From a virus (lineage: Duplodnaviria; Caudoviricetes): DNA of 64,000 bases. Positions 2,646-61,395 of the stretch are shown one piece after another (within the stretch, counting starts at the first letter, position 1; the number at the start of each line of letters is the position of its first letter). The notes beneath the pieces are model-generated. The model did no database searches. It was given only the letters and a program-made list of their open reading frames with translations, and was not told the DNA's origin. The stretch spans positions 39,151 through 103,150 of IMG/VR virus record IMGVR_UViG_3300047545_000306. One strand, given 5' to 3'. A program made the position numbers and the translations under genes.

Positions 2646-3393
2646 ATTTAAAAGCCGTCTTCATTCTGTCATCTATCTTCTTCAGGGCTACTGGATCGTT
2701 TTTCTGCTCCTCGGTTGGTGCAAACAGTGCTCTGTATGTCTTGTCCTTGTCGCTCTCATCTGGCTTGGTGTAGTAGAATAGGGCAATGCTCTTTCTCTGT
2801 TCGCCATCTGGTGCATGGATTGCATCATTGTTTGGTAGTCCATGCCAAGAGTTTTGGGTTGTGTCAAAGATGAAGGCTGTGTTAAACATCGGAGAAACTT
2901 CCTTAACCTTTTCTAGTGGCTGACCGTCTTCTGGATTGTTTGACCATAGTTCTAGTGCACCACCCCACTCCTCTTTCCAATTACTGTTTAGATAAACAAT
3001 TATGTTTAGCTTACGCTTGAGGTTTAGCTTTGGGTGCATCTCTGCATCCCTGTGTAGGTTAAGTCTTCCATTGCTTGGGTGAATGTGCATGCCGCCTGCA
3101 TGTAGACCGAAGTCAGCGTATAGATCTTCTTCAATTCCAGTAAGCTTCTTTAGCTCCGCAATGAACTCGTTTGAGCATAGGTAGTAGAATGCACGATAGA
3201 AGCTGCCTGGATACCAATCCCAGTGGGTGGCAAGACGCTTCTGCTCAAACTCAGTGTGATTTCTGGTTAGCCAACGCTCGTCATCATACTCGTAAAAGTC
3301 TGTCTCTAGCTCCTTAGCTGTTTCATCGCTAAAAAAGTTTGGGATGACCCAGTGATCAAATGGGTTGTTACTGTGCTGAGCTTTTTCTAACAT
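2635..3393 (-). CDS. 2OG-Fe(II) oxygenase (prolyl-hydroxylase-like)
   Basis: HxD (LHRD), IIVYLN..W..EWGGALELW, distal WHG and R-x-S (RKS). Confidence 0.85.
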   Translation of the reverse strand: MLEKAQHSNNPFDHWVIPNFFSDETAKELETDFYEYDDERWLTRNHTEFEQKRLATHWDWYPGSFYRAFYYLCSNEFIAELKKLTGIEEDLYADFGLHAGGMHIHPSNGRLNLHRDAEMHPKLNLKRKLNIIVYLNSNWKEEWGGALELWSNNPEDGQPLEKVKEVSPMFNTAFIFDTTQNSWHGLPNNDAIHAPDGEQRKSIALFYYTKPDESDKDKTYRALFAPTEEQKNDPVALKKIDDRMKTAFKYGR

Positions 3394-23957: not shown

Positions 23958-24586
23958 TATGCCTCTTCCAGCTTTATGCTTACATTCCAGAAGTCGTGTG
24001 TTCCTGTACCACGCTTAGATACCGTGTAGGAGAAGTCTGCTATAAACATCTCAACGAGATGTGAGTACTGATTTAGATGCCCATATGAAGAGTCTCCAGA
24101 TCCAAAGCTTGATGGCTTGTCGTAGGCTAAGAATACCCAGAAAGATCCTGTGTGATTGTTGTACCAGTCTAGGAGGTCAGCTCCGCCTGCACCGCCATCG
24201 GTAGTGTATCCGTAGGCATCTAGGCTAGCTTTTCCATCTGTTCCAAAATTTGGCTTTACCGCAAATGATCTTGATGGCAAGTTTTCCCAAGATAGCGATA
24301 GAGAGATTTTGTCTGCAACGTGATACGATCTCATTCTACCATTGACCATTCGCTCACGCTTTTCTATTCTTTGCTTGCCCATATCTATTGGCGAACGGTT
24401 GTCATCTGAAAGAATCAGGAATTGATCAACTAGCGAGAGGTCGGTGTCTTCTGGAACATCAGCATTTATCTCATACCCAAGTGGAACATACTTACCGTTC
24501 TCTAGGGTTCCAGAGTTTTCAGAAAACAGAATGCCCTGTGGTCTTCCGTACTTCTGTCTTCCAGACATGTAAGCTGCTGTTGCCAT
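23957..24586 (-). CDS. Distal tail protein-like
   Basis: Immediately after the tape measure; RMVNGRMRSY, W.VSIKLEEA. Confidence 0.65.
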   Translation of the reverse strand: MATAAYMSGRQKYGRPQGILFSENSGTLENGKYVPLGYEINADVPEDTDLSLVDQFLILSDDNRSPIDMGKQRIEKRERMVNGRMRSYHVADKISLSLSWENLPSRSFAVKPNFGTDGKASLDAYGYTTDGGAGGADLLDWYNNHTGSFWVFLAYDKPSSFGSGDSSYGHLNQYSHLVEMFIADFSYTVSKRGTGTHDFWNVSIKLEEA

Positions 24587-27500
24587 TATAGCCTATTCCC
24601 TCTAATTCTTTGTGAGTCTATTTGCTTGATCTTTGACATTACTACATCTGCTACATCGTTGGCATTCATGTTTGATCCGTTTAGACTTACGCTTAGATTA
24701 TAATTATACACTGATTCGCCGTTGTATGTTCCATTGTTTATAGCCTTAAGGTTATCTACCCCAAAATTATCTACAGCATACTTACGAACTATAAACTCTC
24801 CAGGAGTAAGCATCGCAGGAATCGTGTCTGTGCCCTTTGCAAAACCACCATCTGCAAAGTAGCCCATTGCCTCTAGCGTTCTTCTCGGCAGCATCGAAAG
24901 TTCTGGTGGTGGAGTCTTTGGAGTCTTTGGTGGTGGTGGTGGAGTAACCACGGTAGGGGAGATAGAGCTACCACTCAGCTTGACCAAGTTGCCGCCCTTT
25001 GCTTTATCGTAGAATGTAACTCCACCGTCTGGAGAATAGGCAACCCAGGTAACTACCCTAGCCTGACCTGTCTGTACCACAGCTTGGCGTGTTGGGTCGT
25101 AGGTATATGGTGCTCTAAGCTCTGCGGTGGTTGTCGTTGTAGTCGTGGTTGCAGGTGGCGTAGTCGTAGTAGTTGCTGCTGGTGGCGTTGACCCTGGAAC
25201 AGCATTTGGATTTAGGTACTGCTTGTATGCGTTATTTGCCAAATCTTGAGCAGCAATCAATGCCTTCGTGTAATCATAGACACCATTTTTTGCATCATTG
25301 ATCTGGGTGTTTAGGCGATCCCATCTAGACTTCTCTAAGTCAATTAGCACGATGTCCTTATCTAGCTGGACCTGCTTTAGTCTGACTAGCTCGGTTGCTG
25401 GGGCAAGTTGCTTCTGCTGGATGTCAAGAATATCGTTCTCAAGGACCTTAACCTGGTCCTCAATTTGCTTCCTGGTCATGCTCTTGCCATTGACTAGGAC
25501 GGTTACAGAATCAAGCTCTTTCTGCTTAGCATCTTCAAGTGCCTTCTTCTTGTTATCAATTGCATACTGGGCATTTCTAGCTCGGATATCTGCCATTGCC
25601 TTGGCGGCTGCAGAGATGTCTCCCTTTGCCAATGCTTCTGCAAGAGAAATCTTGCCCTTTTCCTGCTCGGCAATCTGCTGATTGATTACAGACACCTTTT
25701 CTAGTGCTGCTGCCCTGTCTTCATACTTCTTGTTGATTAGATCTTCTTGCTGAGATATCTTTGTGAGACCTGCGTTGTACTGGTCAAGGACGTATTGGTT
25801 CTTTGCAATTGAGTCGTTTGCTGAGGCAATGGTTGCGTTTGCTGCGATTACGGCTGGATCAAGTTTAAATTCAAGCTCTTTCTTGTTTTTTTCGTTGTCT
25901 AGTTGAAGGGCTGCCTTGTCAAATGCTTCTTGGAACTTTTCTGCTGGAGTCTTCGCACCTTCAAGAGCTTTCTTCAACTCGTTGTAAAGCTTGATGGCTG
26001 CCTTAAGCTCATCATTATTAGAACTATTTGCAATTGCGTTTGCCAAGGTTGTGTCTTTTACTAGTTCTAGTGCATCTGAATAAGTGGTTCCTGCTGCAAC
26101 AAGCTTCGTTATAGCTGCAGTCTGGTTCTTTACATCGACAAGCCCCTGAGACTGTTTGGTCATAAAATCGCCAACAGTCTTTTGTAGCGTATTCTTCTCT
26201 TGAGCAGCTGTGGCAGCGTCCCACTTTGTCTTTAGGTCTGCTAGTGCTATAGCCTGTGCCTGACCAGTTTTCGTTCTTAGGATTGCAGCATATGCTCCCT
26301 GATAATCAGCGTCTGCTGCTGCCTTCGATGCTTCGGCATAACTCCAGCCCTTTGCAATTAGGTCTGTTCTCATGTCGCCTTCAAGCTTTAGTGCTGCTGC
26401 AGTTTCTGCAACCTTATTGGTAAAGTCTCCCAGAATTTCCTTGTCGTATGCTGCAGCAAGCTTTATACCGTTTGCATTGAGAACTCTCACCCCATCCTTG
26501 CCAATCGTGGTGTATAGCTTTTGGGTTAGCACGTCTGCACTAGTTATCATAGATACGAAGTCTTTTGCATACCCCTTGGCTCTTAGAGTTCCCTCTAGCG
26601 TATTGTCCAAAATGCCCTTATTTACCTGAGTAAATAGGTTTGTGGCTTTGTCTCCAGAACCAGATGGTGAGGATGGTGTGCCTGTATCTAGAACACCTGC
26701 AGCCTTGAGGAGTCTCTCTACTTCTGCCTGTGCCGCAATCTGCTGCTTATAAGCCGCTACGACAATCTGATTTTTGACATCTTTTCCGCCAGTTGCAAGA
26801 GCGCCAGCTGTATACCTAGCACCTTCGGCACCGATTGACCCCATGTAAGCATCCAGAACAGCCTGCTCACCCATAGCGATCACGTTCATTATTACTGTCT
26901 TGGATACGGAGCTCTTTGATCCAACAATCTTGCTCCAGTTATCGTTAAGAGTTTGTAGAGTTTGATTATTTTTGCCTGCATCCGTTTCCAGAATTGTTGA
27001 GACAACCTTCTTTGTTATTGGAGACTTTAGCTTATTGATCAGTCCTAGATCTTTTGAAATCTGAGCCAAGTTAGCAGAGTTAATGTCTATCTTTACGCCA
27101 TAGGTATTCTTCAAGGTGTTAATTTGAACGATGGCATCCTTTACATTGTTCCAGTCTGCCCCCTTGTTTTGCATTGCAAGGTTGATTGTCTTTGTCACTG
27201 TGTCTTGGGTGGCACCAGACGAACCAAGCATATTGACTAAGTTATCTACCTCTGCATTTCCTTTAGCTGAAAATGCCAACTGAACATTTTTGCTTGTTGC
27301 TGCGTCTTTAGAAACAATCTTAGTTAGCATGTCTACTGTAGATGGAGATGTTCCAGCTGCCAAGGCAGTTTCTAGAGTAACCTTCATCTTGGTGTCTTTG
27401 ACGTTAGTCTCAACGTTTGCAAGAGCTGCATCTGCAAGAGTCTTCATTCCTGCATTATCTTTGTAAAGGGTATCTATTGACGCAGCGATTGAGTCCTTGA

Positions 27501-30500
27501 ATCCTGCACCATCTGTGTTATAGTTTGCTGCTAGACTATTGTAGAACTGATCTGATGCTGCGGTTTGCTCGTCAATCGCCTTAACACGCATTGCCTCTAG
27601 CTTGTTTATGTCAGCCTCTGTGTTGTGGATCTGCTTTAGCTTATCGAACTGTGCATTTAGTGAGTCTAGCATTTGCTGGTTAGATTTAACCTGGTTAGCA
27701 GCTAGCTGAACTGCAGCAGTTCTATACTGTAGCTTCTCTGCTTCGTTAGCTGCTGCCTCAAATCCGTTGGCGACTGCTCCAACTGCTAGCACGACTCCTG
27801 CAAGACCAGCTAGCACGGCTGCAACTGGTATTCCAACACCTGTGGCACCAGTGACTGCTGCGGCTGCTCCAAGTCCTGCTGCTACAGCTCCAACTCCCAT
27901 GGTTACTGATTGTCCTGTGTTCAAAGCAGACTGCTGAGACAATTCAGCATTTTTCTGCTGTGCCATAGCAAACATATTAGAGGTTTGCTCCGCACCTCTT
28001 CTGGTTATTTCAGAGGCTACCTGTCCTGGGTTAGCTGTTAATGCTTCTCCATTTGGACCAACAATTTGATTTAGATTACCGATAATTTCGGCACTGATCT
28101 TGTAGTTCTTTAGCTTGTCACCGAGTCCCTTTGCAATTGCCTTTGCCTGGGCATCGGTAATCACTCCCTCAAGCATCGCCGTTGAAAGCTGTGTGGCTAT
28201 GTTTGATCCGATATCGCTGTCTGTTGCACCAGATGCTTGCTGTGTCTTAATTCCTGCAACAAGAGACTTTCCAAAAGATGTGTTATTAAGCATTTGAGTT
28301 GCAATGCCATTATCTTTTTTGGAAGAAAGTATTCCAGAGTTTAGGTCTTTTCTATTTCTGGTAGCCTCTTCAGTAGCACTAACAGTCTTATAAACCTTCG
28401 ATAACTCAACAAGTTTTCCATCTGTCATTGTCATTGAGTTTGCCATTTTGATTCCAGCTTCTTTTGCCTTGTTCATCATGTCGATTACCATTGTAACCAC
28501 TGTTGCTAGACCAATCAATCCTGCAACCACCCAACCTGCTGGACCTGGGATCATCATAAGTGCTGTAGACGCAGCCATAGCTGGCATCATCATCTGATTT
28601 CCAATATCCTGCATCTTCTTGTCGCCGCTCATAGACATAGCCATAGGCAGCATGCTTAGAGCCATACCTGCACCCATCTTGCCCTTGCCGCCCTTTTCGT
28701 TGTCAAACATTGACCCTAAGAAGTTTCCACGTGTCGAAGCAGACTTCTTGATTCCTGCATCGCCTCGTAGCATTGCCTGAATCTCTGCAATTCTTGCTTC
28801 GGTAATTTTTTTCTCTGCTGCAACGGCTGCGACTATAGCCTTGGACTCTTCAGTCTTCAGTCTGGTCTCCGTTATTGTCTGGGCTATTGTTTCCTTTTGC
28901 CCCTTAGCCAACGCAATCTTGGCAGCTAGCTCTGATCTTAATCCTGCAGTTGGGTTGACTCTGTACCAAGCCTGCTTCATTGCGGTTGCGGTTGCAGTTG
29001 ATGCAGATACAAAAGCTGTCTTAGTTCCTGTAGCAGCCTTCTTTGCTGATGTGGCTGCGTTGACTCCGAATTCCTTTACCGAATTTGATGCAGCCTTCAT
29101 ACTTGCAATTAGCGATGCCCATGCTGATTTCTGAGCAGCAACGACTGTTTGAGGCATTGCTGATGACAATGCAGACATTGCCTTCTTTGTCAATACTGCA
29201 GACATGTCGCCTCTTGCCAAGGCAGCCTGAGCAATTCTACTTGTAGTGCCAAAGATCTTGCCCATGCGAGTCATCTCTGCTTCAAGATCGACGGCACCTG
29301 CCTTCATCTTCTTTGCTCCGCCTAGGAAGTCCTCTTTAATCCATTGCCACTCTCTTGAAAAATTAGTCTTTGCAACTGACATTGTGGATGATAGCTTTTT
29401 GAAAGCTTGCCCCATTAATGATGACTCTGGAACTGCTGTTCTTAGTGCCTTCTTAATGCTGCCTTCGACAAAAATAGCGTCGCTGCGGACCTGCCCCTTG
29501 GCTGCCTGAAGAGCAGTCTTAATTGGTGTAATAATCTGCTGGAATTCTTGTTTTACCCAACCCATCTCACGTGAGAAGTTTGTCTTTGCACCTGCCATAG
29601 CAGTTTGGAATGCTGTAGGCACTGGCTTAACATAGTTCTGAGCATTGCTGGTGTTGATTACCATTCCAGGCTGTGGACCAAAGAATCTAGGCATTTGCTT
29701 TGATGATGCCACAACAGCTGTTTTTGCAGCTAGACCAAATGCTTCTCCAGAAGACTTTCCTAATGCTCTACCAGACTGAGACTCTTGCTTAACAGCTGTC
29801 TGCATACCCTGCTTAAATCCAGCAACACGATCAGTGGCGATCTTTATCTCTTCTTTAGAAGGCGACTGAATTCCAAAAGCCTTTTCCGTAGCAACTGCCT
29901 GGGATGATTTTCCAGACTGAGTTGTAACAGTTCTCTGCTTCATTTTGGCAGCTAGCTCATTCTCCATTTTTGCTAGATTGAAGGCACCATCAGATGCCTC
30001 CATAAGTGTTCTGTCAAGTTTCTGTATTGCTGCTCTAAATTCTGCTGGAGACTTTTTTGTTCTATTAAGCTCTGAAATTAAGTCATTTGCAGCTGCCTCA
30101 TACTTGCCGCCAAGGAATTGAAGATTTGACAATGACTGAGTAACAGCCCTTGGAGAATACTGAACGCCATTTCTTGCCATCATGTCTACGTCTGGTCTTG
30201 CTTTTCCAGTACCTGCACCATAGGCTGCCTTTGGTCCAAAGATCTGAGTTGCTATCTTTTCATTTTTCTCTGCGTTAAACTTGTAAGAGTCTCTCATCCC
30301 CTTACGGTTGTTGGTAGTTCCAAACTCTGTCCATGACATTCTTGTCTGAGATACCCTGGCAATTGTCTGCTTTGCAATCTGCTCTTGCTTTGATAGGCTG
30401 TCTCCAGAAACGGCAACCTCAAGTGCTGACTCAGCCATCTTTCCGAGGTCCACAACTGTAAGCTGTGCCTTGTCGTCCAATGCTCCAAGGCTGATCTGCA

Positions 30501-33084
30501 TTTCTGCTGCTGCTCTATCTAGGACCTTCTTAATTCCTTCTGCTGACATTCCAGCATTTTGCATGTGTCTTGCGTAGTTATCGTAGATCTCTCCGCCTGT
30601 ACCAACATAAGCCTTCTTGGCTACAGATGCGTCAAACGCCTTGTTTCCCAAGTTATTAATTGCTTGTGGTTGTCTGATAACTGCCTCAGTAAAAGCGGTA
30701 AGCTTTGTTGTCGCTGGGTTTGCACCTGCGGCTCGCATTCTCTTTTCTTCCAAAGCTAGCTTAGTTCTAATCTCTGAGACAGCTTTTTCTCCAAGAACTT
30801 CAACGCTCTGAATAATTTCCGCAATTGTCATTTTGACACCGTCTCTTAGGTGTCCCATCTGAATTGCGTCTGTTCGTGCGATTTCTGCAGAAGGAGCATT
30901 TGGATTTCTTCCCAGGCTAGATACATATCCACCGATTGAATATTTTGCAATATTTCCAGATATCAGGCTGGCGACTAGTGCTGGATTTCTTGCAACTGAT
31001 GCTGCTGGTATAACGGCTTCACCGTTCGATAGCATGGCTGGGATTTCGTCTGAGGTTCCAGTTCCAGGACCACGTACAATGCCTCCTGAAGCCAACCTCG
31101 TGCCAATAGGACCCCTAGGAACTCCTGCACCCATAAATGCTCTTTGTGCTACAGTCGCTCTTCTGTATGCTCCGATCAAAAGACCAACGGCTTCTGCCTC
31201 AGAGGTGAATGTTTGCTTTAGCTTGTTGTGAACCTGATCTAGTGATGCAGCGACTGCCTTTTCATTTAGCTGTGCTTCTGTAAGATAGTTTGTCTGCTCT
31301 CCGAGAGCTTTGTTGGACTTACCAAGGTTATTGAAGAAAGACTTTACGCTAACAAAAAGCTTAATTATGTTTGCGATACCGTTGGCTACAAGACCAACAA
31401 CCATCAGAACCACTGGACCAAAGCCAGCGACACCAATGGTCATGTTTGTTAGGAACGACTTAAACCCATCGTCCATCTTGTTGAAGTTGGCAAGTGCCTC
31501 AGTAAGGAATTTTGCAATTGGAGTAACAGCCTTTACGAACTGCTCTCCCAGTGGTACTAGAGTTACCTTAAGCTCTGCAACAGCCTTTTGAAACTTCATC
31601 ATTGGAGAGTCTGATACACGCTTTAGCTCTCGCTCCGCTAGGATTGATAGCTCAGCCTTAGACTTCTGACCAATTTCAGTTACCGTCGCAGCTTGGCTGT
31701 TTGCATCAGTTACGTTTTTCAATAGGGCTGAGATACGTGAGAACTGGAACTTTCCGAATAGCTTTTCAATTGCCTGTGCACGGTTTAGTGGGTCAAGCTT
31801 GTTTAATGCGTTTCCAAGTTCTACAACAGTATTCTTAATGTTGCCCTTGTTGCCTGTAACAATACCATTTAGATTAATGTTAAACTTTGCTAGGAATTCT
31901 GTTGCTGCCTTGCTAGGGTTAATTATGGATGCAAGACCAGACTTAAGTGCGTTAGCACCCTGTGCTGCGTTAATTCCACCTTCCTTCATTGCTGTTAGGA
32001 AGAAGGCTAGATCCTTGACATCTCCACCAAGCTGTTGAACAATAGGTGCAGCTCTTGGGATAGCTTCAGTCATATCGTCAAGGCTGAGGATGGTTTGGTT
32101 CTGTGTGAAGTTAAGGAAGTTGATATTCTCTGCAAGATCTTTAGATGCAATACCAAAGGCGTTGGTTAGAGATATGGTAGTTTCTAGAGCCTTGTTCTGA
32201 TCAATACCGCCGAGGGCAGCCATTCGACTTGTTTCTCTAACCTGTGTTAGAAGCTCTTGCCCCTGCTTACCAGTAGCAGCAATTGTAGCAGCAAGCTCCA
32301 TTGTGTCTGCAACCTGAATACCATACTGGGTAAACTCGGTACCAATTTGCTTAATGTTCTCGGCAATTTTTCTAGTCTCAGCTTCTGAAGTACTTAGGTC
32401 TCCATAGACACGACGTAGCTTAAGTGATGCGGTCTCTAGTGCCATGTAGGTCTTTGCGGCTGCTGAGCCAAGCATTAGAAGTGGAACGGTGAAGCCAACC
32501 ATAAGCTGTCTACCAGCCCACTGAGTGTTCTTACCCCAGTTTAGAAGGTTTGTCGATCCCTGCTTCAATAGCTGATTTAGAAGTTGTTGCTTTTGTGCAG
32601 CAATAGCTGTTTTTGTGGCAAGGTTTTCCATGTCAAGGGTTAGCGGTCTTACGGCTATTGCCTTCATGGCACCGTTTGCATCACGACCCATCTTGATGTA
32701 TTGGGTCTGTAGGTCCTTGACACGTTCACGTGCCACCTTGTTCATTGTGTTGAACTCAGAGGTGAACATTCTTCCGAATGTTTTTGAAGCCCCACCAGCA
32801 TAACGGAAGTACTCTCCCATTGAGAGTTTGTTGGCTTGTAGGGCTCTTGAGAAAGACTCTGTACTTGTTTGTACAGTTCTTAGGTTAGCTTGGAATTTGC
32901 CAGTAGCGTTTATGGAGTTTAGCAGGTTCTGCTGCATTCCTGCTGCTAGCTGGGCTTGGGCTGCTCCACCCTTTGCCATTTGTGTTTGGAAGGCTGAGAT
33001 TTGCGATTGCAAAAGTTTGATACTTGACAACGCTTGTGAAGTATCAACATTAATCCGTATAGTGGACTGAATATTCTCAGCCAT
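24586..33084 (-). CDS. Tape measure protein
   Basis: 2832 aa, Ala-rich helical; TP901-like core (GANALKSGL), hydrophobic segments, follows the chaperones. Confidence 0.93.
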   Translation of the reverse strand: MAENIQSTIRINVDTSQALSSIKLLQSQISAFQTQMAKGGAAQAQLAAGMQQNLLNSINATGKFQANLRTVQTSTESFSRALQANKLSMGEYFRYAGGASKTFGRMFTSEFNTMNKVARERVKDLQTQYIKMGRDANGAMKAIAVRPLTLDMENLATKTAIAAQKQQLLNQLLKQGSTNLLNWGKNTQWAGRQLMVGFTVPLLMLGSAAAKTYMALETASLKLRRVYGDLSTSEAETRKIAENIKQIGTEFTQYGIQVADTMELAATIAATGKQGQELLTQVRETSRMAALGGIDQNKALETTISLTNAFGIASKDLAENINFLNFTQNQTILSLDDMTEAIPRAAPIVQQLGGDVKDLAFFLTAMKEGGINAAQGANALKSGLASIINPSKAATEFLAKFNINLNGIVTGNKGNIKNTVVELGNALNKLDPLNRAQAIEKLFGKFQFSRISALLKNVTDANSQAATVTEIGQKSKAELSILAERELKRVSDSPMMKFQKAVAELKVTLVPLGEQFVKAVTPIAKFLTEALANFNKMDDGFKSFLTNMTIGVAGFGPVVLMVVGLVANGIANIIKLFVSVKSFFNNLGKSNKALGEQTNYLTEAQLNEKAVAASLDQVHNKLKQTFTSEAEAVGLLIGAYRRATVAQRAFMGAGVPRGPIGTRLASGGIVRGPGTGTSDEIPAMLSNGEAVIPAASVARNPALVASLISGNIAKYSIGGYVSSLGRNPNAPSAEIARTDAIQMGHLRDGVKMTIAEIIQSVEVLGEKAVSEIRTKLALEEKRMRAAGANPATTKLTAFTEAVIRQPQAINNLGNKAFDASVAKKAYVGTGGEIYDNYARHMQNAGMSAEGIKKVLDRAAAEMQISLGALDDKAQLTVVDLGKMAESALEVAVSGDSLSKQEQIAKQTIARVSQTRMSWTEFGTTNNRKGMRDSYKFNAEKNEKIATQIFGPKAAYGAGTGKARPDVDMMARNGVQYSPRAVTQSLSNLQFLGGKYEAAANDLISELNRTKKSPAEFRAAIQKLDRTLMEASDGAFNLAKMENELAAKMKQRTVTTQSGKSSQAVATEKAFGIQSPSKEEIKIATDRVAGFKQGMQTAVKQESQSGRALGKSSGEAFGLAAKTAVVASSKQMPRFFGPQPGMVINTSNAQNYVKPVPTAFQTAMAGAKTNFSREMGWVKQEFQQIITPIKTALQAAKGQVRSDAIFVEGSIKKALRTAVPESSLMGQAFKKLSSTMSVAKTNFSREWQWIKEDFLGGAKKMKAGAVDLEAEMTRMGKIFGTTSRIAQAALARGDMSAVLTKKAMSALSSAMPQTVVAAQKSAWASLIASMKAASNSVKEFGVNAATSAKKAATGTKTAFVSASTATATAMKQAWYRVNPTAGLRSELAAKIALAKGQKETIAQTITETRLKTEESKAIVAAVAAEKKITEARIAEIQAMLRGDAGIKKSASTRGNFLGSMFDNEKGGKGKMGAGMALSMLPMAMSMSGDKKMQDIGNQMMMPAMAASTALMMIPGPAGWVVAGLIGLATVVTMVIDMMNKAKEAGIKMANSMTMTDGKLVELSKVYKTVSATEEATRNRKDLNSGILSSKKDNGIATQMLNNTSFGKSLVAGIKTQQASGATDSDIGSNIATQLSTAMLEGVITDAQAKAIAKGLGDKLKNYKISAEIIGNLNQIVGPNGEALTANPGQVASEITRRGAEQTSNMFAMAQQKNAELSQQSALNTGQSVTMGVGAVAAGLGAAAAVTGATGVGIPVAAVLAGLAGVVLAVGAVANGFEAAANEAEKLQYRTAAVQLAANQVKSNQQMLDSLNAQFDKLKQIHNTEADINKLEAMRVKAIDEQTAASDQFYNSLAANYNTDGAGFKDSIAASIDTLYKDNAGMKTLADAALANVETNVKDTKMKVTLETALAAGTSPSTVDMLTKIVSKDAATSKNVQLAFSAKGNAEVDNLVNMLGSSGATQDTVTKTINLAMQNKGADWNNVKDAIVQINTLKNTYGVKIDINSANLAQISKDLGLINKLKSPITKKVVSTILETDAGKNNQTLQTLNDNWSKIVGSKSSVSKTVIMNVIAMGEQAVLDAYMGSIGAEGARYTAGALATGGKDVKNQIVVAAYKQQIAAQAEVERLLKAAGVLDTGTPSSPSGSGDKATNLFTQVNKGILDNTLEGTLRAKGYAKDFVSMITSADVLTQKLYTTIGKDGVRVLNANGIKLAAAYDKEILGDFTNKVAETAAALKLEGDMRTDLIAKGWSYAEASKAAADADYQGAYAAILRTKTGQAQAIALADLKTKWDAATAAQEKNTLQKTVGDFMTKQSQGLVDVKNQTAAITKLVAAGTTYSDALELVKDTTLANAIANSSNNDELKAAIKLYNELKKALEGAKTPAEKFQEAFDKAALQLDNEKNKKELEFKLDPAVIAANATIASANDSIAKNQYVLDQYNAGLTKISQQEDLINKKYEDRAAALEKVSVINQQIAEQEKGKISLAEALAKGDISAAAKAMADIRARNAQYAIDNKKKALEDAKQKELDSVTVLVNGKSMTRKQIEDQVKVLENDILDIQQKQLAPATELVRLKQVQLDKDIVLIDLEKSRWDRLNTQINDAKNGVYDYTKALIAAQDLANNAYKQYLNPNAVPGSTPPAATTTTTPPATTTTTTTTAELRAPYTYDPTRQAVVQTGQARVVTWVAYSPDGGVTFYDKAKGGNLVKLSGSSISPTVVTPPPPPKTPKTPPPELSMLPRRTLEAMGYFADGGFAKGTDTIPAMLTPGEFIVRKYAVDNFGVDNLKAINNGTYNGESVYNYNLSVSLNGSNMNANDVADVVMSKIKQIDSQRIRGNRL

Positions 33085-46293: not shown

Positions 46294-46620
46294 CTATACT
46301 ATTATTGTTTTGATAGCCAGGAGATCTTCTTCAGAAAGATTTAGTCTGGTCATCAAATCTGTTGCCAGAAGTCTTTGATTGATTATCAGCTGCTCTTCTG
46401 CGGATATATCCTCTTGGTTCCAAACCTGCTTATACTTGCCACGATACAATACAGGAATACTCTCCACAACCTTTTTACCAGCTTCTGCTACTGGCTGCTC
46501 TACTACCTGAACTTCGCTCCAGCCGTCTGGCAGTGCGTCTCCATCTACCCACAGTGGATGCTCTAGCTGCAAGTCTCCTATGTATCTTGGATAGTTGTCT
46601 CCATTTATTAATAACATCAT
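46294..46620 (-). CDS. Small fibre-associated protein
   Basis: YPR...W.Q.W pattern; coupled to the upstream propeller gene. Confidence 0.45.
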   Translation of the reverse strand: MMLLINGDNYPRYIGDLQLEHPLWVDGDALPDGWSEVQVVEQPVAEAGKKVVESIPVLYRGKYKQVWNQEDISAEEQLIINQRLLATDLMTRLNLSEEDLLAIKTIIV

Positions 46621-47978
46621 ATGCTCCTTAAGTCCATTGTTGTTGATGAGTTTGATAGTGTTAGTGTCGTGAGTCCAGATGTTTGAACAGCAACATTTCC
46701 GCCTGAGTCAGATCCTAGGGGTCCTGATGCCACAGTTGTTGGCGAATTGCCATAGGTCCAATTAGATGCTATATGCTGCCACACAAATCCAAAAAAGGAA
46801 TATTTTTTTGAAACATTTAAACCATCTTTTGGAAATTTTGTAAAATATGATTTGCCTGACCAAGTGTATCCAAGCCTATATAGGAAGTTTCCAAAAACTG
46901 ATATCCCATACCCGATTGTGCTTTCTCCTGTTGAGAACTCTCTTTGATACTGTAAGACTCCAGATGTATTGTATTTAAAAATATGATCGGCATAGGTATT
47001 GTTGGCTGATCCATCAGTTCCCCAGGAATGTGCATATATGCTTGTTCCATCTAAAACCATGTCCATTACCCTGCTACTTCCTCCACCAGTTGATAGTATG
47101 TTTGGTGATATTGCATACTTCTGATAAATAACATTGCCACTTGTATCGATTCCAGCAAAATATGGGCAACCAGTTCCGTACTGAAACCCTCCTGGGTCTA
47201 TCCATCCAGAGACATGAAGGTTGCCAGAAGAGTCTACAGTGCTTGCATGTATCCAGAAGTACTTGTTAGCCTGAGTTGTGTCTGGTCCGTACATGTTCTT
47301 CTGCCACTGCAAAGTTCCAGAACTGTCAAACTTTGACACGAAGCTGTAATATCCGTATAGTGTTGATGGGTCATATCTTCCACTCCAAAACACATTCCCA
47401 GATGAGTCAACGGATACTGGTCCGCCGTATGTGCTGTACCCCCATGGATTTGTGAACCTTCTATTCCAGATGATATTTCCCGATGAGTCTAGCTTGACTA
47501 GAACTGCCCATGCCCATTGGCTAGTATTTGGCACATATATGTCGTAAGTTCCACTGAAATATATGGACAAGTCTGACGAGTTAAAGCGTATGCTGTTCAG
47601 ATAGGTCCCAGATGTTGAGTTTGTGCTTACGGTTCTATAGTATTTTTGCCACAGAAGACTTCCATTTGTATCTATTCTAGCAACAACAAACTTTGTGACA
47701 AATGTTGAGCTTTCAACCACGTCTTGCTTGCCGCCCAGAACAATTTCTCCAGATGATGAAACATCCATGGTATCATAAGTTCCTCCAGATATGATCTTTT
47801 CCCAGAGTATTTTCCCTTGTGGGCTTATCTTTCTGATCACACCATTGTTGACAGCGTACGAGTTTCCAGATGAGTCTAACCTTAGCTTTGGACTGTATAC
47901 TGATGTGTCAGACATGTTGGCAAACCAGCCACCAATTCGTTTGGGTGCAGTTAACAGACCAATTCCAATGGGAGGCAT
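46617..47978 (-). CDS. Beta-propeller protein, putative receptor-binding
   Basis: Repeated (V/L)DSSGN...K.DSSG.L.WQK blades. Confidence 0.7.
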   Translation of the reverse strand: MPPIGIGLLTAPKRIGGWFANMSDTSVYSPKLRLDSSGNSYAVNNGVIRKISPQGKILWEKIISGGTYDTMDVSSSGEIVLGGKQDVVESSTFVTKFVVARIDTNGSLLWQKYYRTVSTNSTSGTYLNSIRFNSSDLSIYFSGTYDIYVPNTSQWAWAVLVKLDSSGNIIWNRRFTNPWGYSTYGGPVSVDSSGNVFWSGRYDPSTLYGYYSFVSKFDSSGTLQWQKNMYGPDTTQANKYFWIHASTVDSSGNLHVSGWIDPGGFQYGTGCPYFAGIDTSGNVIYQKYAISPNILSTGGGSSRVMDMVLDGTSIYAHSWGTDGSANNTYADHIFKYNTSGVLQYQREFSTGESTIGYGISVFGNFLYRLGYTWSGKSYFTKFPKDGLNVSKKYSFFGFVWQHIASNWTYGNSPTTVASGPLGSDSGGNVAVQTSGLTTLTLSNSSTTMDLRSI

Positions 47979-49033
47979 TACGCTATCTCCACATTGCCCA
48001 ATACTGCATAGACTGTAGAAGTGTCTGCAAATACTGTTGCAGACGTATACTGGTTAGATATTTTTAGATTTACGCCTGTCGATCCAACACCCTGCAAAGT
48101 TGTTCCAGATGCTGCTAGAGTAACAACTCCAGCACCCTTTTGATATACGTCAAAGGATTGATTAGCTGTTAGCACTGCTGGTATTGTTATCGTTACAGCA
48201 GATGCAGAATCGACCTTAAGGACCTTGCCAATATCTGATGATTGTACAGTGTAGTTTGAGGTTATTGTTGACGATGTTCTGACTACCGCATCTAAAGCTG
48301 TCTGTAGCCCTGTAACGTCCGATATGGCATGTGTGTGAGATGATGAGGCTTTTCCATCTAGAGTTGTCTGTAGCCCTGTTACATTAGATATAGAGTGTGT
48401 GTGAGATGCTGCTGACTTGCCATCTATTTGTGTCTGGATTGCAGACGTTACTCCGTCAAGGTATCCGATCTCGGTGTCGGATACCCCAGTGACCTTATCC
48501 TGTTTGTTGGAAAGAGATGTTGTGATTGTGGCTGCATAGCTAGCGTCATCGCCCAAAGCGGCTGCGAGTTCGTTTAAGGTGTTCAGGGCACTGGGAGCGG
48601 AATCTACAAGATTGCCAATTTGTGTATCTGTGTAAGAGTTTGCCACTGCTACTGCTGCTGATAGATCTAGGGATTCTACTGCAGTATCGGTATAGTCATT
48701 GGCTTCTGCAATAGCTTCACCCCTGGCAGTTGCTATATCTGCTGCAACCGTAGTGCTAAAGCTATCGTCGTCGCCCAGGGATGCTGATATCTTTTCCAGA
48801 GTATCCATTGCAGTTGGAACGTTACCCAAGATATCTGACACTATTCCAGAAAAATCTGGAAGATTAGAAAAATCTTTAAAATACTCTAAAGCACTCCACT
48901 GATCAACACCATTACCAATCTTAAAGTTTCCAGTATTTGATTCAAACCCAATTTCTCCTGGAGCAAGCGTTGGATTTAATGTTGTCCATTGTGTAGATGT
49001 CCCTCTACGCTGTTGGGTTCTTTTTAGAGTCAT
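47978..49033 (-). CDS. Tail fibre protein (Mtd/hyaluronidase-like N-terminus)
   Basis: QQRRGT..QW...NP.LA.GEIGFE...FKIG.G; tandem SHTH.IS.VTGLQT.LD repeats. Confidence 0.75.
   Translation of the reverse strand: MTLKRTQQRRGTSTQWTTLNPTLAPGEIGFESNTGNFKIGNGVDQWSALEYFKDFSNLPDFSGIVSDILGNVPTAMDTLEKISASLGDDDSFSTTVAADIATARGEAIAEANDYTDTAVESLDLSAAVAVANSYTDTQIGNLVDSAPSALNTLNELAAALGDDASYAATITTSLSNKQDKVTGVSDTEIGYLDGVTSAIQTQIDGKSAASHTHSISNVTGLQTTLDGKASSSHTHAISDVTGLQTALDAVVRTSSTITSNYTVQSSDIGKVLKVDSASAVTITIPAVLTANQSFDVYQKGAGVVTLAASGTTLQGVGSTGVNLKISNQYTSATVFADTSTVYAVLGNVEIA
48296..48421 (-). repeat. 63-bp tandem duplication encoding two SHTH.IS.VTGLQT.LD fibre repeats
   Basis: tgtctgtagccctgt and tgtgtgtgagatg each recur 63 bp apart. 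Confidence 0.75.
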
Positions 49034-49059: not shown

Positions 49060-49197
49060 TTATTTAAAAGACATGGATCCATGAACATCGCCTTTGCCAC
49101 ATCTAGAGCAAGTTTTTGATACCGCTCTTGTGACTGGACATGTCAATACAACTTTTTTGTGTCCTAATAAAAGGCACTTTAGTTTAATGGTAGCCAA
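49060..49197 (-). CDS. Small Zn-finger protein (45 aa, DUF1660-like)
   Basis: Below cutoff, TTG start: MATIKLKCLLLGHKKVVLTCPVTRAVSKTCSRCGKGDVHGSMSFK; C-x3-GH...CxRCG. Confidence 0.65.
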   Translation of the reverse strand: MATIKLKCLLLGHKKVVLTCPVTRAVSKTCSRCGKGDVHGSMSFK

Positions 49198-49850
49198 TGT
49201 TGTTCCTGTATCTTTGGGTCATTTTCTAGATGTGATAGTGGGATGATGTCGTATGCAACAGTAATTCTTGGACCATCCCAACTCCAGTCTCCCATAGCAT
49301 GTGGGTGTCCCATTTCTGACAATACCGCACGATTGTTTTGGTTAATGTTGGTCTTTGGTCCCTGGGTAGTAATGTAGTGAGTTTCTGATGGCTCTGCCTT
49401 TACTGCATAATAGCCATGGAACATGGGTGCCCCAGAATCTCCATGCTCGTGCCAGTCTAATTTTCCAACCTTTGCATGGTTAATGTTAAACCATCCCTGA
49501 ATCATGAACCTTTGTTCTTCAAAGTTTATTCCATAGTATTCGCAGGCTTCACGAACCATGTTGCCAACAGCAACATATAGGTTGTATATTTCAGTGTTGT
49601 AGAATTGAAAGACATTGTAGTCTTTCCATTTCATTGTAGAAACGCTGCCCGATGATTTCCAAGCTTCCAGTGGCTGATCCTGTGGCATTCCTGGCAATTC
49701 AGACTTTACAATTCTTGGATACTGATCAGTCAGAAAGCTAGCTAGCTTTTCAAGGTCGTTGTTTAAAAATGCCTCAAAGAATCTGTGTGGCTGTACTGAC
49801 TTGCTAATTGCTTTTACTTGCGGCGGAACGCCATTAACACCATTTTGCAT
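49179..49850 (-). CDS. 2OG-Fe(II) oxygenase (TIGR02466-like)
   Basis: GWFNIN...WHEH (HxH)...HGYY...HPH...RITVAYDI. Confidence 0.75.
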   Translation of the reverse strand: MQNGVNGVPPQVKAISKSVQPHRFFEAFLNNDLEKLASFLTDQYPRIVKSELPGMPQDQPLEAWKSSGSVSTMKWKDYNVFQFYNTEIYNLYVAVGNMVREACEYYGINFEEQRFMIQGWFNINHAKVGKLDWHEHGDSGAPMFHGYYAVKAEPSETHYITTQGPKTNINQNNRAVLSEMGHPHAMGDWSWDGPRITVAYDIIPLSHLENDPKIQEQHWLPLN

Positions 49851-49884
49851 ATAATCTCTTTCTGTTGTATTTTATTATACACTA

Positions 49885-50664
49885 TTAGCGTGTGAAAGAA
49901 AATACTGCGAAGTAGTAATTATAGAAATTGCTGTAGTTTGCGTAGTTATAGTAGTTAGCGTAGTTGTAGAAATTAGCGTAGTTATAGAAGTTATAGAAGT
50001 TATAGAAGTTGTAGAAGTTGTAGTAGTTGTAGTAGTTGTAGTAATTTGAATAGTTGTAGTATGTGGTCACTGATCCAGTTGCGGCTGAAGTAGCAGAGTT
50101 TCCATTTGCATTAGTTGCATAGATGGTGTAGGTCTGAGATGTTCCAGCTTCTTGAAGAACAGATGTATTTGGAGTTGCAGTGTCTCCTGCCTTTGCATCG
50201 CTTGATTCCCAGTGATAGTTTGTGATCGCCTTTCCACCGTTTGCTGGTGCAAGCCAGGTTAGATCGTCTGAGTTTGTGCTAGGGTTTGTTGCTGCGTTTA
50301 GAGTAATTGTAGCTGGAACAGTAGTAGCAAATACTGTTGTAGTCGCAGATGCTTCAGAGGTTCCTACGGCATTTGTTGCAGTTACGCTAACTGTGTATGT
50401 GACTCCTGCTGCAAGACTAGAAACAGTTATTGGAGAAGATACTCCAGTTGCTGTTCTGGTTGTTTGCCCTGCTGCAGTAGCGGTTACCGTGTAAGATGTG
50501 GCTGCTGGTGAGTTACCTGGCAAAGAGAAAGAAACAGACGCTGCACCATCATTGTATGGTCTGTTTGTACCAACGTCAGTTGCCGATACGCTTACTGGTG
50601 CTAGTGGCTGTAAGAAGTCATTGGATGCCGCTGACTTTTTTCCTGCTCTTTTATTTGCTGCCAT
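49885..50664 (-). CDS. Fibronectin type III protein with C-terminal (Y/F)xN repeat tail
   Basis: Two FN3 domains (SYTVTA...YTVSVTATNAVGTS; W.AP.NGG.AITNY...ATNANG) then 16 (Y/F)xN triplets. Confidence 0.85.
   Translation of the reverse strand: MAANKRAGKKSAASNDFLQPLAPVSVSATDVGTNRPYNDGAASVSFSLPGNSPAATSYTVTATAAGQTTRTATGVSSPITVSSLAAGVTYTVSVTATNAVGTSEASATTTVFATTVPATITLNAATNPSTNSDDLTWLAPANGGKAITNYHWESSDAKAGDTATPNTSVLQEAGTSQTYTIYATNANGNSATSAATGSVTTYYNYSNYYNYYNYYNFYNFYNFYNFYNYANFYNYANYYNYANYSNFYNYYFAVFSFTR
49912..50061 (-). repeat. 9-bp period degenerate tandem repeat encoding 16 (Y/F)-(Y/A/S)-N units
   Basis: Plus-strand units such as gttgtagta, gttatagaa, gttagcgta. Confidence 0.9.
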
Positions 50665-50687: not shown

Positions 50688-52016
50688 TTAAGCTGATAGA
50701 TCGCCAAAGACAACCCATGTGTCTGTAGCTCTCTTAAATAGTGTAGCAGATGACCACTGTGTGCGTAGCTTTAGTCCAGGGGTACCATTGACTGTGGTGG
50801 TTCCTGGAGTTACTGCTGCTATGGTTACCTGTCCAGAGCCAGTCTGTAGGATATCGATTGAGGTTCCAACTGGATATGCAACTGAGGCATTTGTAGGTAT
50901 AGATATGGTTACACCAGATGCTGAATTGACCTCCACGAGCTTGTCACGGTCTGTTAGAGCTGTTGTGTACGCACCTGTCTGCTGGTTAATAGCTGTGATA
51001 GATGGAACGCCTTGCTTAACCTGTACGCCATCAGCATATTCAATTCCGCCTACCTTTAGGGTATCGTAAACTGCCTGAGAGAAGTTAATGGTGGTTGTTG
51101 GCTCATCCTCAACGCTTGAGAATAGCTTCCAAACACCGTCGGTAGCGTCACGAACGATACCTGCGTGTTGATATGCCCCATCATTGAATGATGAAACAAG
51201 ACCAAGGTCAACCACATTTGCATCATTGCCCTCGCCGATATAGATTAGTGGGTCTGTCACAACTAGGTCTGTTGCATTAACAGTGGTGGTTGTTCCACCG
51301 ACAGTCAGATCTCCAGTGATTGAGATATCTGCAGCTGTTAGAGTTCCAGTGAAAGTTGGTCCTGCTATTGGTGCCTTTGCATCTAGCTGAGTCTGAATTG
51401 ATGATGTAACTCCATCAACGTAGTTTAGCTCTGTAACTGATACTGTTGCACCGTCAAGGATGTTTAGCTCTGCTGCTGAGGCAGTAACGTCTACAATGTC
51501 TGCTGCATTAACGGTCACGTTGTTGTCTGCTGCAGATATGGTCTTGTTTGTAAGAGTTTCTGTACCTGACTTTGTAGCCAATTCTGAGGTGTCTGAGATA
51601 CCGTGAACATTTGTAGTATCATTTGCGTGAGTGTCAACGTAGCCTTGGGCTGTTAACTCCGCAGCTGCCTTGGCAGTAGCAATGTCATTAGTGAGTGTAG
51701 TTACAGCAGTGTCAACAGCATCAGATGCCGATGAAAGTGCTATAGAAAGCTGAGCTTCTGGAATTACTCCATCTCCATTAAGAGTTGCAACACCATCTAC
51801 AGCACCCTTCTGGGTAATAGGAACGTAGTCGTCTAGGTTTCCACCGAGGTCTACGATATTCTTAAATGGTGATAGGTCATCCCAGGTGTTTACGCCATCG
51901 CCAACACGGAATTCTCCAGTGTCTGTCTCGTAACCAATTTCTCCTGCTGCTAGAATAGGGTTAGCAGTAGTCCATTGAGAGGCTGTTCCTCTACGTTGCT
52001 GCATTCTTGTTGCCAT
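50688..52016 (-). CDS. Tail fibre protein (paralog of 47978..49033)
   Basis: Same QQRRGT...GEIGYE N-terminus and related C-domain (LQTGSGQVTI...QWSSATL...VFGDL). Confidence 0.75.
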   Translation of the reverse strand: MATRMQQRRGTASQWTTANPILAAGEIGYETDTGEFRVGDGVNTWDDLSPFKNIVDLGGNLDDYVPITQKGAVDGVATLNGDGVIPEAQLSIALSSASDAVDTAVTTLTNDIATAKAAAELTAQGYVDTHANDTTNVHGISDTSELATKSGTETLTNKTISAADNNVTVNAADIVDVTASAAELNILDGATVSVTELNYVDGVTSSIQTQLDAKAPIAGPTFTGTLTAADISITGDLTVGGTTTTVNATDLVVTDPLIYIGEGNDANVVDLGLVSSFNDGAYQHAGIVRDATDGVWKLFSSVEDEPTTTINFSQAVYDTLKVGGIEYADGVQVKQGVPSITAINQQTGAYTTALTDRDKLVEVNSASGVTISIPTNASVAYPVGTSIDILQTGSGQVTIAAVTPGTTTVNGTPGLKLRTQWSSATLFKRATDTWVVFGDLSA

Positions 52017-60696: not shown

Positions 60697-61395
60697 CTAA
60701 TTAACTGATATAGATATTGATTTTATCTTTACCGCTGAGTCTAGGTCAGTTCTTATTTTTGGAACAATTCCTGCATTCTTATGTTGCTCTGAAAGAATTA
60801 GAAGATTGTGTGTAACAGACATTTCGTATGTGTGCTGATATTTCAGATTTGCACAAAAAGTGGTTACAGAAGTGTCTAAATCTATGAATTCTGATCTCAT
60901 CCACACCTCTGTATTTGAGTTAAAGGTTATTACCTCTATTTCATAGGTTATCTGAACCTGGGCACCGACTTTTAAAGCTCTTGTGTTTATCTTTCTAATA
61001 TCGTTGCTGTAAAGGCTCACAGAGTCCTCTGGAAGAAAAGACTCATTCGGATTCATAGAGTTGATAAAAAGCTGTACCCAGCCATCCTCGCCTCTTGTGG
61101 CACCTGTTGGTGTTGTGTTGGTATTTTTATTTTCATAGAAGCCCCACCCGACATTTTGACCATAAGTTGGGAAGTAGGATTTTCCATCTTTTCCAGGAAA
61201 ACCTCGCTCTCCTCTTGGACCTGGCTTGCCTTCTCCAGGATCACCTTTTTCACCCTTGGCTCCATCTTTTCCTGGAGGTCCTGGTGGTCCTACTGGTCCT
61301 GGAACAGCAAAAAAAGCTGATTCTTGTGGTTGTTGTGATTGAACCTTCTCTGCATAAGCAGATTTTGGGAAATCCATATTTTGAGAAATAGCCAT
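60697..61395 (-). CDS. Collagen-like (GXY) virion protein
   Basis: GPVGPPGPPGKDGAKGEKGDPG...GPRGERGFPGKDG. Confidence 0.75.
   Translation of the reverse strand: MAISQNMDFPKSAYAEKVQSQQPQESAFFAVPGPVGPPGPPGKDGAKGEKGDPGEGKPGPRGERGFPGKDGKSYFPTYGQNVGWGFYENKNTNTTPTGATRGEDGWVQLFINSMNPNESFLPEDSVSLYSNDIRKINTRALKVGAQVQITYEIEVITFNSNTEVWMRSEFIDLDTSVTTFCANLKYQHTYEMSVTHNLLILSEQHKNAGIVPKIRTDLDSAVKIKSISISVN

Follow-up and report, generated by a model that had tools for sequence, protein, structure and literature searches.

A widespread tailed-phage cassette linking an aromatic-repeat FN3 protein to a putative oxygenase-fold protein and a predicted metal-binding micro-protein

Background

Phage genomes from oceans and lakes are rich in oxygenases of the 2-oxoglutarate (2OG) type, the substrates of which have been a puzzle since the first cyanophage genomes were obtained; the published ideas are metabolites, DNA repair and 2OG levels (PMC3037559, PMC2938197). 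A locus in a 64,000-nucleotide stretch of a tailed virus (Duplodnaviria; Caudoviricetes; positions 39,151 to 103,150 of the IMG/VR record IMGVR_UViG_3300047545_000306; hereafter the window) raises this question in a tangible form. Here a gene for an FN3 protein with a long aromatic repeat at its C-terminus is followed by genes for a protein with an oxygenase fold (working name OXA; the 223-aa product of 49179-49850) and for a Cys/His micro-protein (working name ZnR; the 45-aa product of 49060-49197). Does the enzyme oxidise the repeat? We find that this cassette is real, widespread and undescribed, and that it supplies a concrete candidate substrate: a disordered repeat tail, encoded directly upstream, that switches with the enzyme family. 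What is new is both the form of the cassette that combines a YxN tail with OXA and ZnR, and the mapping of tails to enzymes; that the adjacent oxygenase modifies the tail is a reading to which we give slightly less than an even chance.

Results and Discussion

Conservation of the cassette in the tail-fibre module

The cassette lies between two tail-fibre genes with Mtd_N domains:

50688..52016, minus strand: upstream tail-fibre gene, 442 aa; Pfam Mtd_N N-terminal domain (2e-14) and several PHROG tail-fibre families
49885..50664, minus strand: FN3 protein with aromatic tail, 259 aa plus stop; open reading frame, Pfam fn3 (6e-9)
49179..49850, minus strand: OXA, 223 aa, double-stranded beta-helix, oxygenase-like; 35-homologue alignment, AlphaFold2 (AF2) model and structural matches
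49060..49197, minus strand: ZnR, 45-aa Cys/His micro-protein; alignment and a DUF1660 match below the cut-off
47978..49033, minus strand: downstream tail-fibre gene, 351 aa; Pfam Mtd_N (4e-10) and phage tail repeat, PTR (1e-13)

The two fibre genes are paralogues (E 7e-28), the FN3-tail gene is separated from OXA by 34 bp on the same strand, and the ZnR gene overlaps the end of OXA by 19 nt, all of which agrees with a preliminary description of the locus made from its sequence. No terminator-like site was found between the cassette genes on their strand, and these genes would be co-transcribed with the fibre genes. The 34-bp gap (49851-49884) includes TGTATAAT, an extended -10-like sequence, and a promoter scan flags TTCACA-16-TAAAAT at 49869-49896; OXA may also have a promoter of its own.

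Searches of GenBank phages recovered no match to the 6-kb region (megablast) or to the two proteins (tblastn). In IMG/VR, FN3-tail proteins are found on at least 569 contigs, and we read 125 loci in detail, of which 82 are non-redundant. Their layout is constant, with an Mtd_N fibre gene, the FN3-tail gene, a short run of enzyme genes and a structural gene of about 1200 aa; the proposal that the three genes form a unit within the tail-fibre module is thus upheld by the related loci. The locus in the window is best explained as the simplest version of a conserved cassette that a large group of uncultured tailed phages carries among its tail-fibre genes.

In all 82 non-redundant loci the tail begins after a conserved ..S-V-T-T and is aromatic-rich and uncharged. 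Its units include FYN/YYN (the window, two genes on contig L048 and one on L063), FSVFGF/GVFGF, SPFGF, FTPFGF, FSFTPY and PFFPP. The spacer residues are interchangeable across the family (G, S, A, T, V, P and N), and what is common to every tail is the aromatic residue. In each of the 125 loci the genes that follow the FN3-tail gene, up to the next large structural gene, come from a small set: OXA, ZnR, prolyl 4-hydroxylase (P4H)-like proteins of PF13640, DUF6065, AspH-like proteins of PF05118, GlcNAc-transferases of PF11397 and sulfotransferase-like proteins. DUF6065 lacks a conserved His triad and was not counted as an oxygenase; its profile gave nothing against the PDB and the ESM atlas, and no paper on this family was found.

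In 20 of 95 distinct locus entries the tail continues in frame into a domain that an iterated search, started from one of these domains, flagged as Hint-like:

L047:165-1445, L050:5995-7233, L039:402-1916, L021-L024, L030, L098, L105, L113-L115, L132, L139-L140: Hint-like domain after the tail

This domain begins with Cys in most proteins, with some relatives lacking it, and its matches to PT-HINT, Intein_splicing and Hint_2 are all below threshold. The three sequences read to their end terminate in ..VHN and a few further residues without a downstream nucleophile, for which reason splicing is not expected; this arrangement implies a predicted self-cleavage, or thioester transfer, at the C-terminus of the tail. 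The FN3 protein of the window has no Hint domain. The Hint-like domains of the relatives would cut after the tail, not before it, and the window protein, with its 259 residues, two folded domains and place in a structural module, shows no leader, protease or released peptide. The earlier comparison to a precursor/modifier pair of ribosomally synthesized and post-translationally modified peptides is accordingly an analogy and nothing closer.

Other tails end in short Cys-rich caps, such as ..CSGCIRSYCWQACPSCCGSCGC, ..NWYNCPGPC and ..CPECTKGCPC (L032, L052, L056, L077, L090, L102, L109, L117, L121, L125 and L129), and in L100-L106 and L127 a short tail is followed by entire Cys-rich modules, inserted ahead of the Hint-like domain. 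A scaffold without FN3 domains is also found beside the same enzymes: it has a basic N-terminal peptide, GFTHYA/GFYH (aromatic-His-Gly) repeats that span about 170 residues, and a degenerate Hint-like domain, and adjoins two copies of DUF6065, OXA and ZnR (L040:2603-3733, L041:2583-3725 and L045:2685-3731). The occurrence of this unrelated scaffold next to the same enzymes supports the pairing of aromatic repeats with the enzymes.

A match to the GlcNAc-transferase family PF11397 (E 4e-25) is encoded at L032:8548-9507, and the family is also present in L029, L034-L039, L051, L075, L081, L086 and L093. PF11397 is the family of the Skp1 hydroxyproline GlcNAc-transferase; this kinship, together with the protein-hydroxylase neighbours, argues for protein substrates and, by analogy, suggests that Thr-Pro-containing tails in the PF11397 cassettes might be tailored by hydroxylation and then glycosylation. 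Upstream of clustered P4H-like, DUF6065, OXA and GlcNAc-transferase-like genes, and a few genes away from them, two contigs that also encode a WhiB-like protein have a gene for a protein with a long PT/PE-rich stretch (L036:347-2491, 714 aa, and L029:425-1729). It has a hydrophobic, signal-like N-terminus and no aromatic tail, and may be a different class of substrate for the same enzyme toolkit.

Tail chemistry and enzyme sets

The preliminary description had proposed comparing tail composition with the family of the downstream oxygenase, and the two do co-vary. All 38 loci with Pro-Phe tails possess two or more PF13640 P4H-like genes and DUF6065, and none has OXA. Among the 44 loci with other tails, 39 contain one to four OXA paralogues, with ZnR following the last OXA copy in 33 of these 39, and none has the P4H-like plus DUF6065 set of the Pro-Phe loci. 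By eye on the locus table, the number of OXA paralogues showed no clear relation to tail length, with loci having a single OXA including tails of 70 residues. OXA and ZnR come after each of the four known YxN tails, and these cassettes contain no P4H-like gene. On the tree of the FN3 domain, tail type and enzyme set change six times, always together, and all informative pairs agree in direction (three on well-supported branches, six on all branches). The window itself is instructive in this regard. Its FN3 domain falls, with good support, in a 15-member clade in which Pro-Phe-type tails prevail (13 loci; identity to L064 and L046, 68-69%), whereas L002, a locus with an F-type tail, OXA and ZnR, has the nearest relatives of its fibre gene, OXA and large structural gene (75%, 72% and 41%). 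The tail type therefore follows the enzyme set and not the FN3 domain.

Several observations weigh against modification of the tail by the adjacent enzyme. Only three contrasts fall on well-supported branches, so that the sign test is underpowered (p = 0.25), and a block swapped between conserved flanks would carry tail and enzymes together, producing co-variation without a functional tie. While OXA remained orthologous, the tail beside it went from F-type to YxN, and the YxN-linked OXAs have no convergent residues in common; either the spacer residues make no difference to OXA, or the enzyme ignores the tail altogether. The metal site of OXA is HxH..H and not the canonical HxD/E..H, which makes 2OG-dependent hydroxylation by OXA itself an assumption. 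Finally, tails without a linked oxygenase, or the reverse, had been named in advance as the outcome that would speak against the pairing, and both occur in part: in 5 of the 82 loci a long aromatic tail is kept and DUF6065, alone or together with a sulfotransferase-like gene, is all that precedes the next structural gene, and OXA homologues of 55-60% identity occur on other, incomplete phage contigs without an FN3-tail gene in the available DNA. Three such contigs (G001, G002 and G004) were scanned and contained no aromatic repeats near the OXA homologue; as they are 23-49% complete, this is weak evidence.

Some of these observations would be expected if the tail worked unmodified, as a sticky, self-associating or glycan-binding element or one for fibre assembly, and OXA merely shared a hypervariable fibre island while acting on another protein, such as the fibres, the collagen-like protein encoded at 60697-61395 or a host protein. 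We regard this as rather unlikely but as a serious contender. The five tails without a recognised oxygenase, the OXA homologues found elsewhere without aromatic tails, and the occurrence of a single OXA orthogroup beside very different tails are all in its favour; so are the presence in this genome of remote P4H-like genes and a collagen-like protein, and the fact that the Pseudomonas P4H, a structural neighbour of OXA, acts on host EF-Tu according to the title of its PDB entry. The Hint-like domains could likewise be seen as C-terminal processing for assembly, comparable to fibre chaperone domains. Against it stand the perfect match of Pro-Phe tails to their enzymes, the recurrence of the same enzymes beside an unrelated aromatic-repeat scaffold, and the tight spacing of the genes on a shared strand.

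The FN3 protein and its repeat tail

The FN3 protein comprises the following segments:

50605..50664, minus strand: conserved basic N-terminal peptide MAANKRAGKKSAASNDFLQP, residues 1-20; homologue alignment, low predicted local distance difference test (pLDDT) values
50326..50595, minus strand: FN3-type beta-sandwich 1, residues 24-113; Pfam fn3 match to residues 38-111, AF2 pLDDT above 90
50065..50301, minus strand: FN3-type beta-sandwich 2, residues 122-200; seven strands in the AF2 model, pLDDT about 90-97, without a Pfam call of its own
49918..50061, minus strand: sixteen (Y/F)-x-N triplets, residues 202-249; codon table, degenerate DNA periodicity, pLDDT about 40
49888..49917, minus strand: C-terminal cap YYFAVFSFTR, residues 250-259; comparison with F-type tails

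Across the homologues, K5, G8, N15, D16 and L18 of the N-terminal peptide show little or no variation. Pfam calls a single fn3 domain (36.4 bits against a cut-off of 25; E 6e-9), and the AF2 model shows two seven-strand beta-sandwiches that place the protein in the FN3 fold; of the two FN3 domains claimed earlier the second thus has the support of the model and lacks that of Pfam. The tail, with a pLDDT of about 40, is predicted to be disordered. Translation of the open reading frame bears out the tail as first described: the sixteen triplets are unbroken, with Y (10) or F (6) in the first position and N in the third position of all 16. Neither K nor R occurs in the tail ahead of its C-terminal Arg. 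The ..F-[SG]-F-x-R ending of the cap is common to many F-type tails, and those without a Hint domain or a Cys-rich cap end in ..VFGFR, ..VFSFR or ..FSFYWFSR. The FN3-tail protein is the sole aromatic low-complexity protein in the 103-kb record.

Could the repeat be a functionless by-product of replication slippage, or not be translated in this frame? The region is a degenerate tandem array at the DNA level (Tandem Repeats Finder; period 9/18/27, 77-84% matches), and its +1 frame is also open and Thr-rich. The peptide is, however, more regular than the DNA, since the DNA units are 77-84% alike and the peptide pattern is exact. The synonymous codons vary within the window tail, as had been noted (Asn AAC 12 : AAT 4; TAC and TAT for Tyr; GCT and GCA for Ala; TCA and AGC for Ser), and between the four tails, the AAC:AAT ratios of the three further FYN-type tails being 4:15, 7:12 and 9:2 with the peptide pattern kept. 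Two of these are encoded by tandem FN3 paralogues on L048 (L048:5995-6801 and L048:6837-7682), each with an FYN-type tail, before a single OXA and ZnR; the third is on L063. The +1 frame has no homologue support, whereas the YxN frame runs on from the FN3 domains without a break, both here and in all homologues, and the C-terminal cap is shared. A degenerate DNA pattern for FYNFYNFYN matched 96 stretches of IMG/VR; among the 80 of these 96 that were read, coding examples were confined to the two known FN3 contigs, with none on other scaffolds, and the rest were short, non-coding, AT-rich, microsatellite-like DNA. An origin of the pattern in slippage alone, or a lack of translation in this frame, is therefore extremely improbable, and the earlier argument for selection on the peptide holds.

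The oxygenase-fold protein OXA

OXA has no match in Pfam or PHROG; Pfam searches with 35 family members at E <= 5 gave only noise, and the profile of their alignment recovered nothing among PDB sequences. There are at least 1264 homologues, and each of the 120 listed is unnamed and of metagenomic origin. The AF2 model based on the 35-homologue alignment is a double-stranded beta-helix (pLDDT 87; predicted TM-score 0.86), for which Foldseek recovered 123 PDB matches at E <= 1e-3; with few exceptions, those listed are 2OG oxygenases. In VIA-align comparisons the best matches are 3bvc (Z 16.7) and 2rg4 (Z 16.2), over 170 residues with a root mean square deviation of 2.7-2.9, followed by PHD2 and the Pseudomonas P4H (Z 13-14) and natural-product 2OG enzymes (Z 12-14). 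The core double-stranded beta-helix (jelly-roll) fold of the superfamily is thus recovered over about 170-180 residues, with Z scores of 13-16.7. In ESM features the neighbours of OXA are viral clusters carrying PF13759 (2OG-FeII_Oxy_5); the profile hidden Markov model (HMM) of this family found no hit in the 35 members at E <= 5 and none in a six-frame genome search at E <= 1, so that OXA, as modelled, is related to it by fold and language-model features only.

The invariant residues are W-H134-[E/D]-H136, H145, G-H182-P-H184, R195-x-T197 and Y200-D201. The canonical 2-His-1-carboxylate triad (HxD/E...H) is not present, as the carboxylate position is His in 35 of 35 sequences. The first metal ligand, the distal His and the Arg are spaced as they are in canonical 2OG enzymes, and R195-x-T197, which lies 11 residues past H184 on the next strand, corresponds in sequence and secondary structure to the RxS/T element with the basic residue for the C5-carboxylate of 2OG. 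The 2OG oxygenase superfamily tolerates loss of the carboxylate, as in the halogenases, and the His at that position accordingly weakens the claim of canonical chemistry and not that of the fold. The assignment of OXA in the preliminary description as an HxH...H 2OG-Fe(II) oxygenase is hence sustained by the fold, the His pattern and the RxT element, without a hit in Pfam or PHROG. OXA is therefore an oxygenase-fold protein with a probable three-His metal site, and its use of metal and co-substrate would follow the chemistry of its relatives.

The presence of the natural-product enzymes FtmOx1, SnoK/SnoN, ThoJ and AsqJ among the Foldseek neighbours raises the alternative that OXA is an auxiliary metabolic or secondary-metabolite enzyme that acts on a small molecule or nucleic acid and has no tie to the tail. 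Roles in metabolites, DNA repair or 2OG levels have been proposed for the 2OG oxygenases of cyanophages (PMC2938197, PMC3037559). OXA is, however, placed directly after the tail gene in the fibre module of dozens of loci, sister cassettes encode partners of a protein-directed type (P4H-like, PF11397 and Hint-like domains), and no biosynthetic genes occur near the cassette. We consider such a role quite unlikely. The PF11397 and sulfotransferase-like partners fit protein tailoring over metabolite chemistry.

Asparagine as a target

A more specific proposal, and the one made in the preliminary description, is that OXA is a peptidyl-asparagine beta-hydroxylase comparable to FIH or AspH. The invariant N of all sixteen triplets, kept also in the three further FYN tails despite synonymous change, is compatible with this, as are the AspH-like PF05118 genes of some sister cassettes. 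The OXA of the window is also fast-evolving (30 private residues compared to 13-14 in its neighbours), which makes a lineage-specific shift in specificity conceivable. It belongs, however, to the first-copy orthogroup on the OXA tree, with L002/L119 and L004 as its nearest relatives, and the closest of these are found beside tails free of Asn: FSFVPF.. in L002 (72% identity) and FSFTPF.. in L004 (69%). The L018 tail likewise lacks Asn, as do most tails beside OXA orthologues, in contrast to the conservation of Asn that hydroxylases of Asn/Asp would call for. The OXAs of the other YxN loci (L048 and L063) fall in a neighbouring sub-clade, and the YxN-linked OXAs share one private residue, compared to none or one in control triples joining two clades and four within the window's own clade. 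Across the family N is merely one of several small spacers. With respect to kinship, no Pfam match to FIH or AspH was found, and the top 50 structural matches consist of 3bvc, 2rg4, PHD, P4H, SnoN/K and FtmOx1 entries, a set that does not by itself exclude an unlisted family.

Taken together, these points make an Asn hydroxylase in this phage very unlikely, and of the original proposal neither Asn as the target nor kinship to FIH or AspH is supported. The Asn-free tails beside orthologous enzymes suggest that, if the tail is a substrate, the modification is better sought on the aromatic side chain or at an adjoining backbone-proximal position.

The micro-protein ZnR

The ZnR gene starts with TTG. 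In 22 sequences C8, H13, C20, P21, T23, C30 and C33 of its product are invariant, and the penultimate F44 is nearly so. The match to DUF1660 is below threshold (20.3 bits against a cut-off of 21.4; E 8e-4), and the conserved Cys/His pattern suggests a metal-binding micro-protein. ZnR ends in ..H-x-S-M-S-F-K and the tail in ..F-S-F-T-R. In both C-termini a small residue followed by an aromatic one, which stands one or two positions from the end, is retained from locus to locus. This similarity may reflect a shared docking or recognition motif, or chance.

Functional predictions

We infer only from gene position that the FN3-tail protein is located on the virion; its tail would be the substrate of OXA. 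The proposed working of the cassette is as follows. The FN3-tail protein would be a fibre-associated carrier, composed of a basic N-terminal peptide, two FN3 domains and a disordered, uncharged tail with an aromatic residue at every second or third position. OXA would be a PHD/P4H-like Fe(II) oxygenase of an unnamed family with His134, His136 and His184 as metal ligands, and Arg195-x-Thr197 located where its relatives bind 2-oxoglutarate. It would oxidise, in the simplest case hydroxylate, repeated positions of the tail after translation. ZnR, translationally coupled to OXA and predicted to bind Zn, is a possible helper. The modified tail on the particle could then serve as a sticky, cross-linking or glycan-binding appendage. 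The predicted disorder of the tail and the retention of its pattern across synonymous change fit an accessible and selected substrate.

A bolder generalization, which we advance as speculative and on balance improbable, is that the aromatic-spacer tails constitute a new class of enzymatically oxidised phage appendage, made by a family of three-His Fe oxygenases with a Zn micro-protein, and that exchange of tail chemistry and enzyme set as a single cassette retunes adhesion to host surfaces. Beta-hydroxylated or catechol-type Tyr/Phe and aromatic cross-links could be the modifications in such appendages.

Should the tail prove to be modified, this would establish that proteins of the tail-fibre region are oxidised post-translationally in tailed phages. 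It would also give a function to a widespread Zn micro-protein and to an unnamed family with at least 1264 members, and point to a new swappable determinant of the sticking of phages to hosts or particles. If the tail is unmodified, the aromatic tails are nonetheless undescribed and very widespread (at least 569 contigs), and in need of explanation.

Other genes of the record

The source record is a 103-kb viral contig, estimated to be 88% complete, of which the window is the last 64 kb. The window encodes portal, protease, capsid, DNA polymerase and helicase proteins and a long minus-strand run of tail genes. Two PF13640 (P4H-like) genes are distant from the cassette, at 2635-3393 (minus strand; E 3e-17) and, outside the window, at G000:C1:7917-8162 (E 1e-9), indicating that the oxygenases of this phage are not all within the fibre module. 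A 232-aa protein with a collagen-like Gly-X-Y run (..GPVGPPGPPGKDGAKGEKGDPGEGKPGPRGERGFPGKDG..) is encoded at 60697-61395 (minus strand) and is a possible substrate of these P4H-like proteins. Low-complexity runs of other types occur in a 2832-aa protein (24586-33084, minus strand; Pro/Thr-rich, ..TPPAATTTTTPPATTTTTTTT..) and, just upstream of the window, in a 671-aa protein (G000:C1:32821-34836, minus strand; Pro-rich and Gly/Ser-rich). A 453-aa protein with repeated ..D(S/T)SGN.. units (46617-47978, minus strand), encoded after the downstream fibre gene and before the large structural gene, showed no family match and no counterpart among the related loci examined.

Comparison with known systems

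The nearest prediction is that of Iyer, Abhiman, de Souza and Aravind in 2010, who described bacterial operons in which dioxygenases of the beta-hydroxylase family and sulfotransferases are paired with collagen-like or tail-collar proteins as proposed substrates (PMC2938197). Their operons resemble the present cassettes in co-encoding dioxygenases with a repetitive or fibre-type protein, and they too noted phage banks of diverse dioxygenases. They did not, however, include aromatic-repeat tails, a Zn micro-protein or Hint-like domains, and they read the tandem dioxygenase array of the cyanophage Syn9 as machinery for secondary metabolites, with no phage protein substrate named (PMC2938197). 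Sullivan et al. in 2010 tied the 2OG oxygenases of cyanophages to 2OG levels or DNA repair (PMC3037559). Our literature searches found nothing on PF13759, the nearest named family, or on the hydroxylation of phage virion or tail proteins.

Among structures, the best matches of OXA, 3bvc and 2rg4, are uncharacterised PF13759-type proteins of the Roseobacter group from structural genomics; even with the threshold relaxed to E = 1-5 the PF13759 HMM gives no hit to OXA, and since neither has a known function the match says nothing on the substrate of OXA. PHD2 and the Pseudomonas P4H share the fold with OXA over nearly its whole length (Z 13-14), along with the spacing of ligands and Arg, but differ in their low identity (7-10%), in the His at the acidic ligand position of OXA and in that the window tail lacks proline. 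FIH and AspH are comparable as 2OG oxygenases that hydroxylate protein Asn, but have no HMM match to OXA, are not its top structural neighbours, and call for an Asn that is not conserved in OXA-linked tails. The likeness to bacterial intein-like (BIL) and Hedgehog-type Hint domains, seen in the Cys start and the ..VHN end, concerns the sister cassettes only, as the window has no Hint domain.

The nearest demonstrated case is chlorovirus PBCV-1, the prolyl 4-hydroxylase of which can hydroxylate (Pro-Ala-Pro-Lys)n repeats encoded by the same virus (summarised in PMC3634087). In both systems a virus encodes a protein hydroxylase of the 2OG type, here a putative one, together with repeat proteins, and the closest parallel lies in the sister cassettes with Pro-Phe tails and PF13640: the combination of a PF13640/P4H enzyme with a Pro-rich repeat is found at 38 Pro-Phe loci and not in the cassette of the window. 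The enzyme of the window differs from that of PBCV-1 in belonging to an unnamed HxH..H family and not to PF13640, and its repeat lacks proline. Furthermore, enzyme and repeat are adjacent here and swap together, the host is bacterial, and the system is known from its genes alone. A wider comparison is offered by the chemistry of mussel glue and extensin, of which oxidised phage tails, if the prediction is true, would be a protein-level counterpart on a virus particle.

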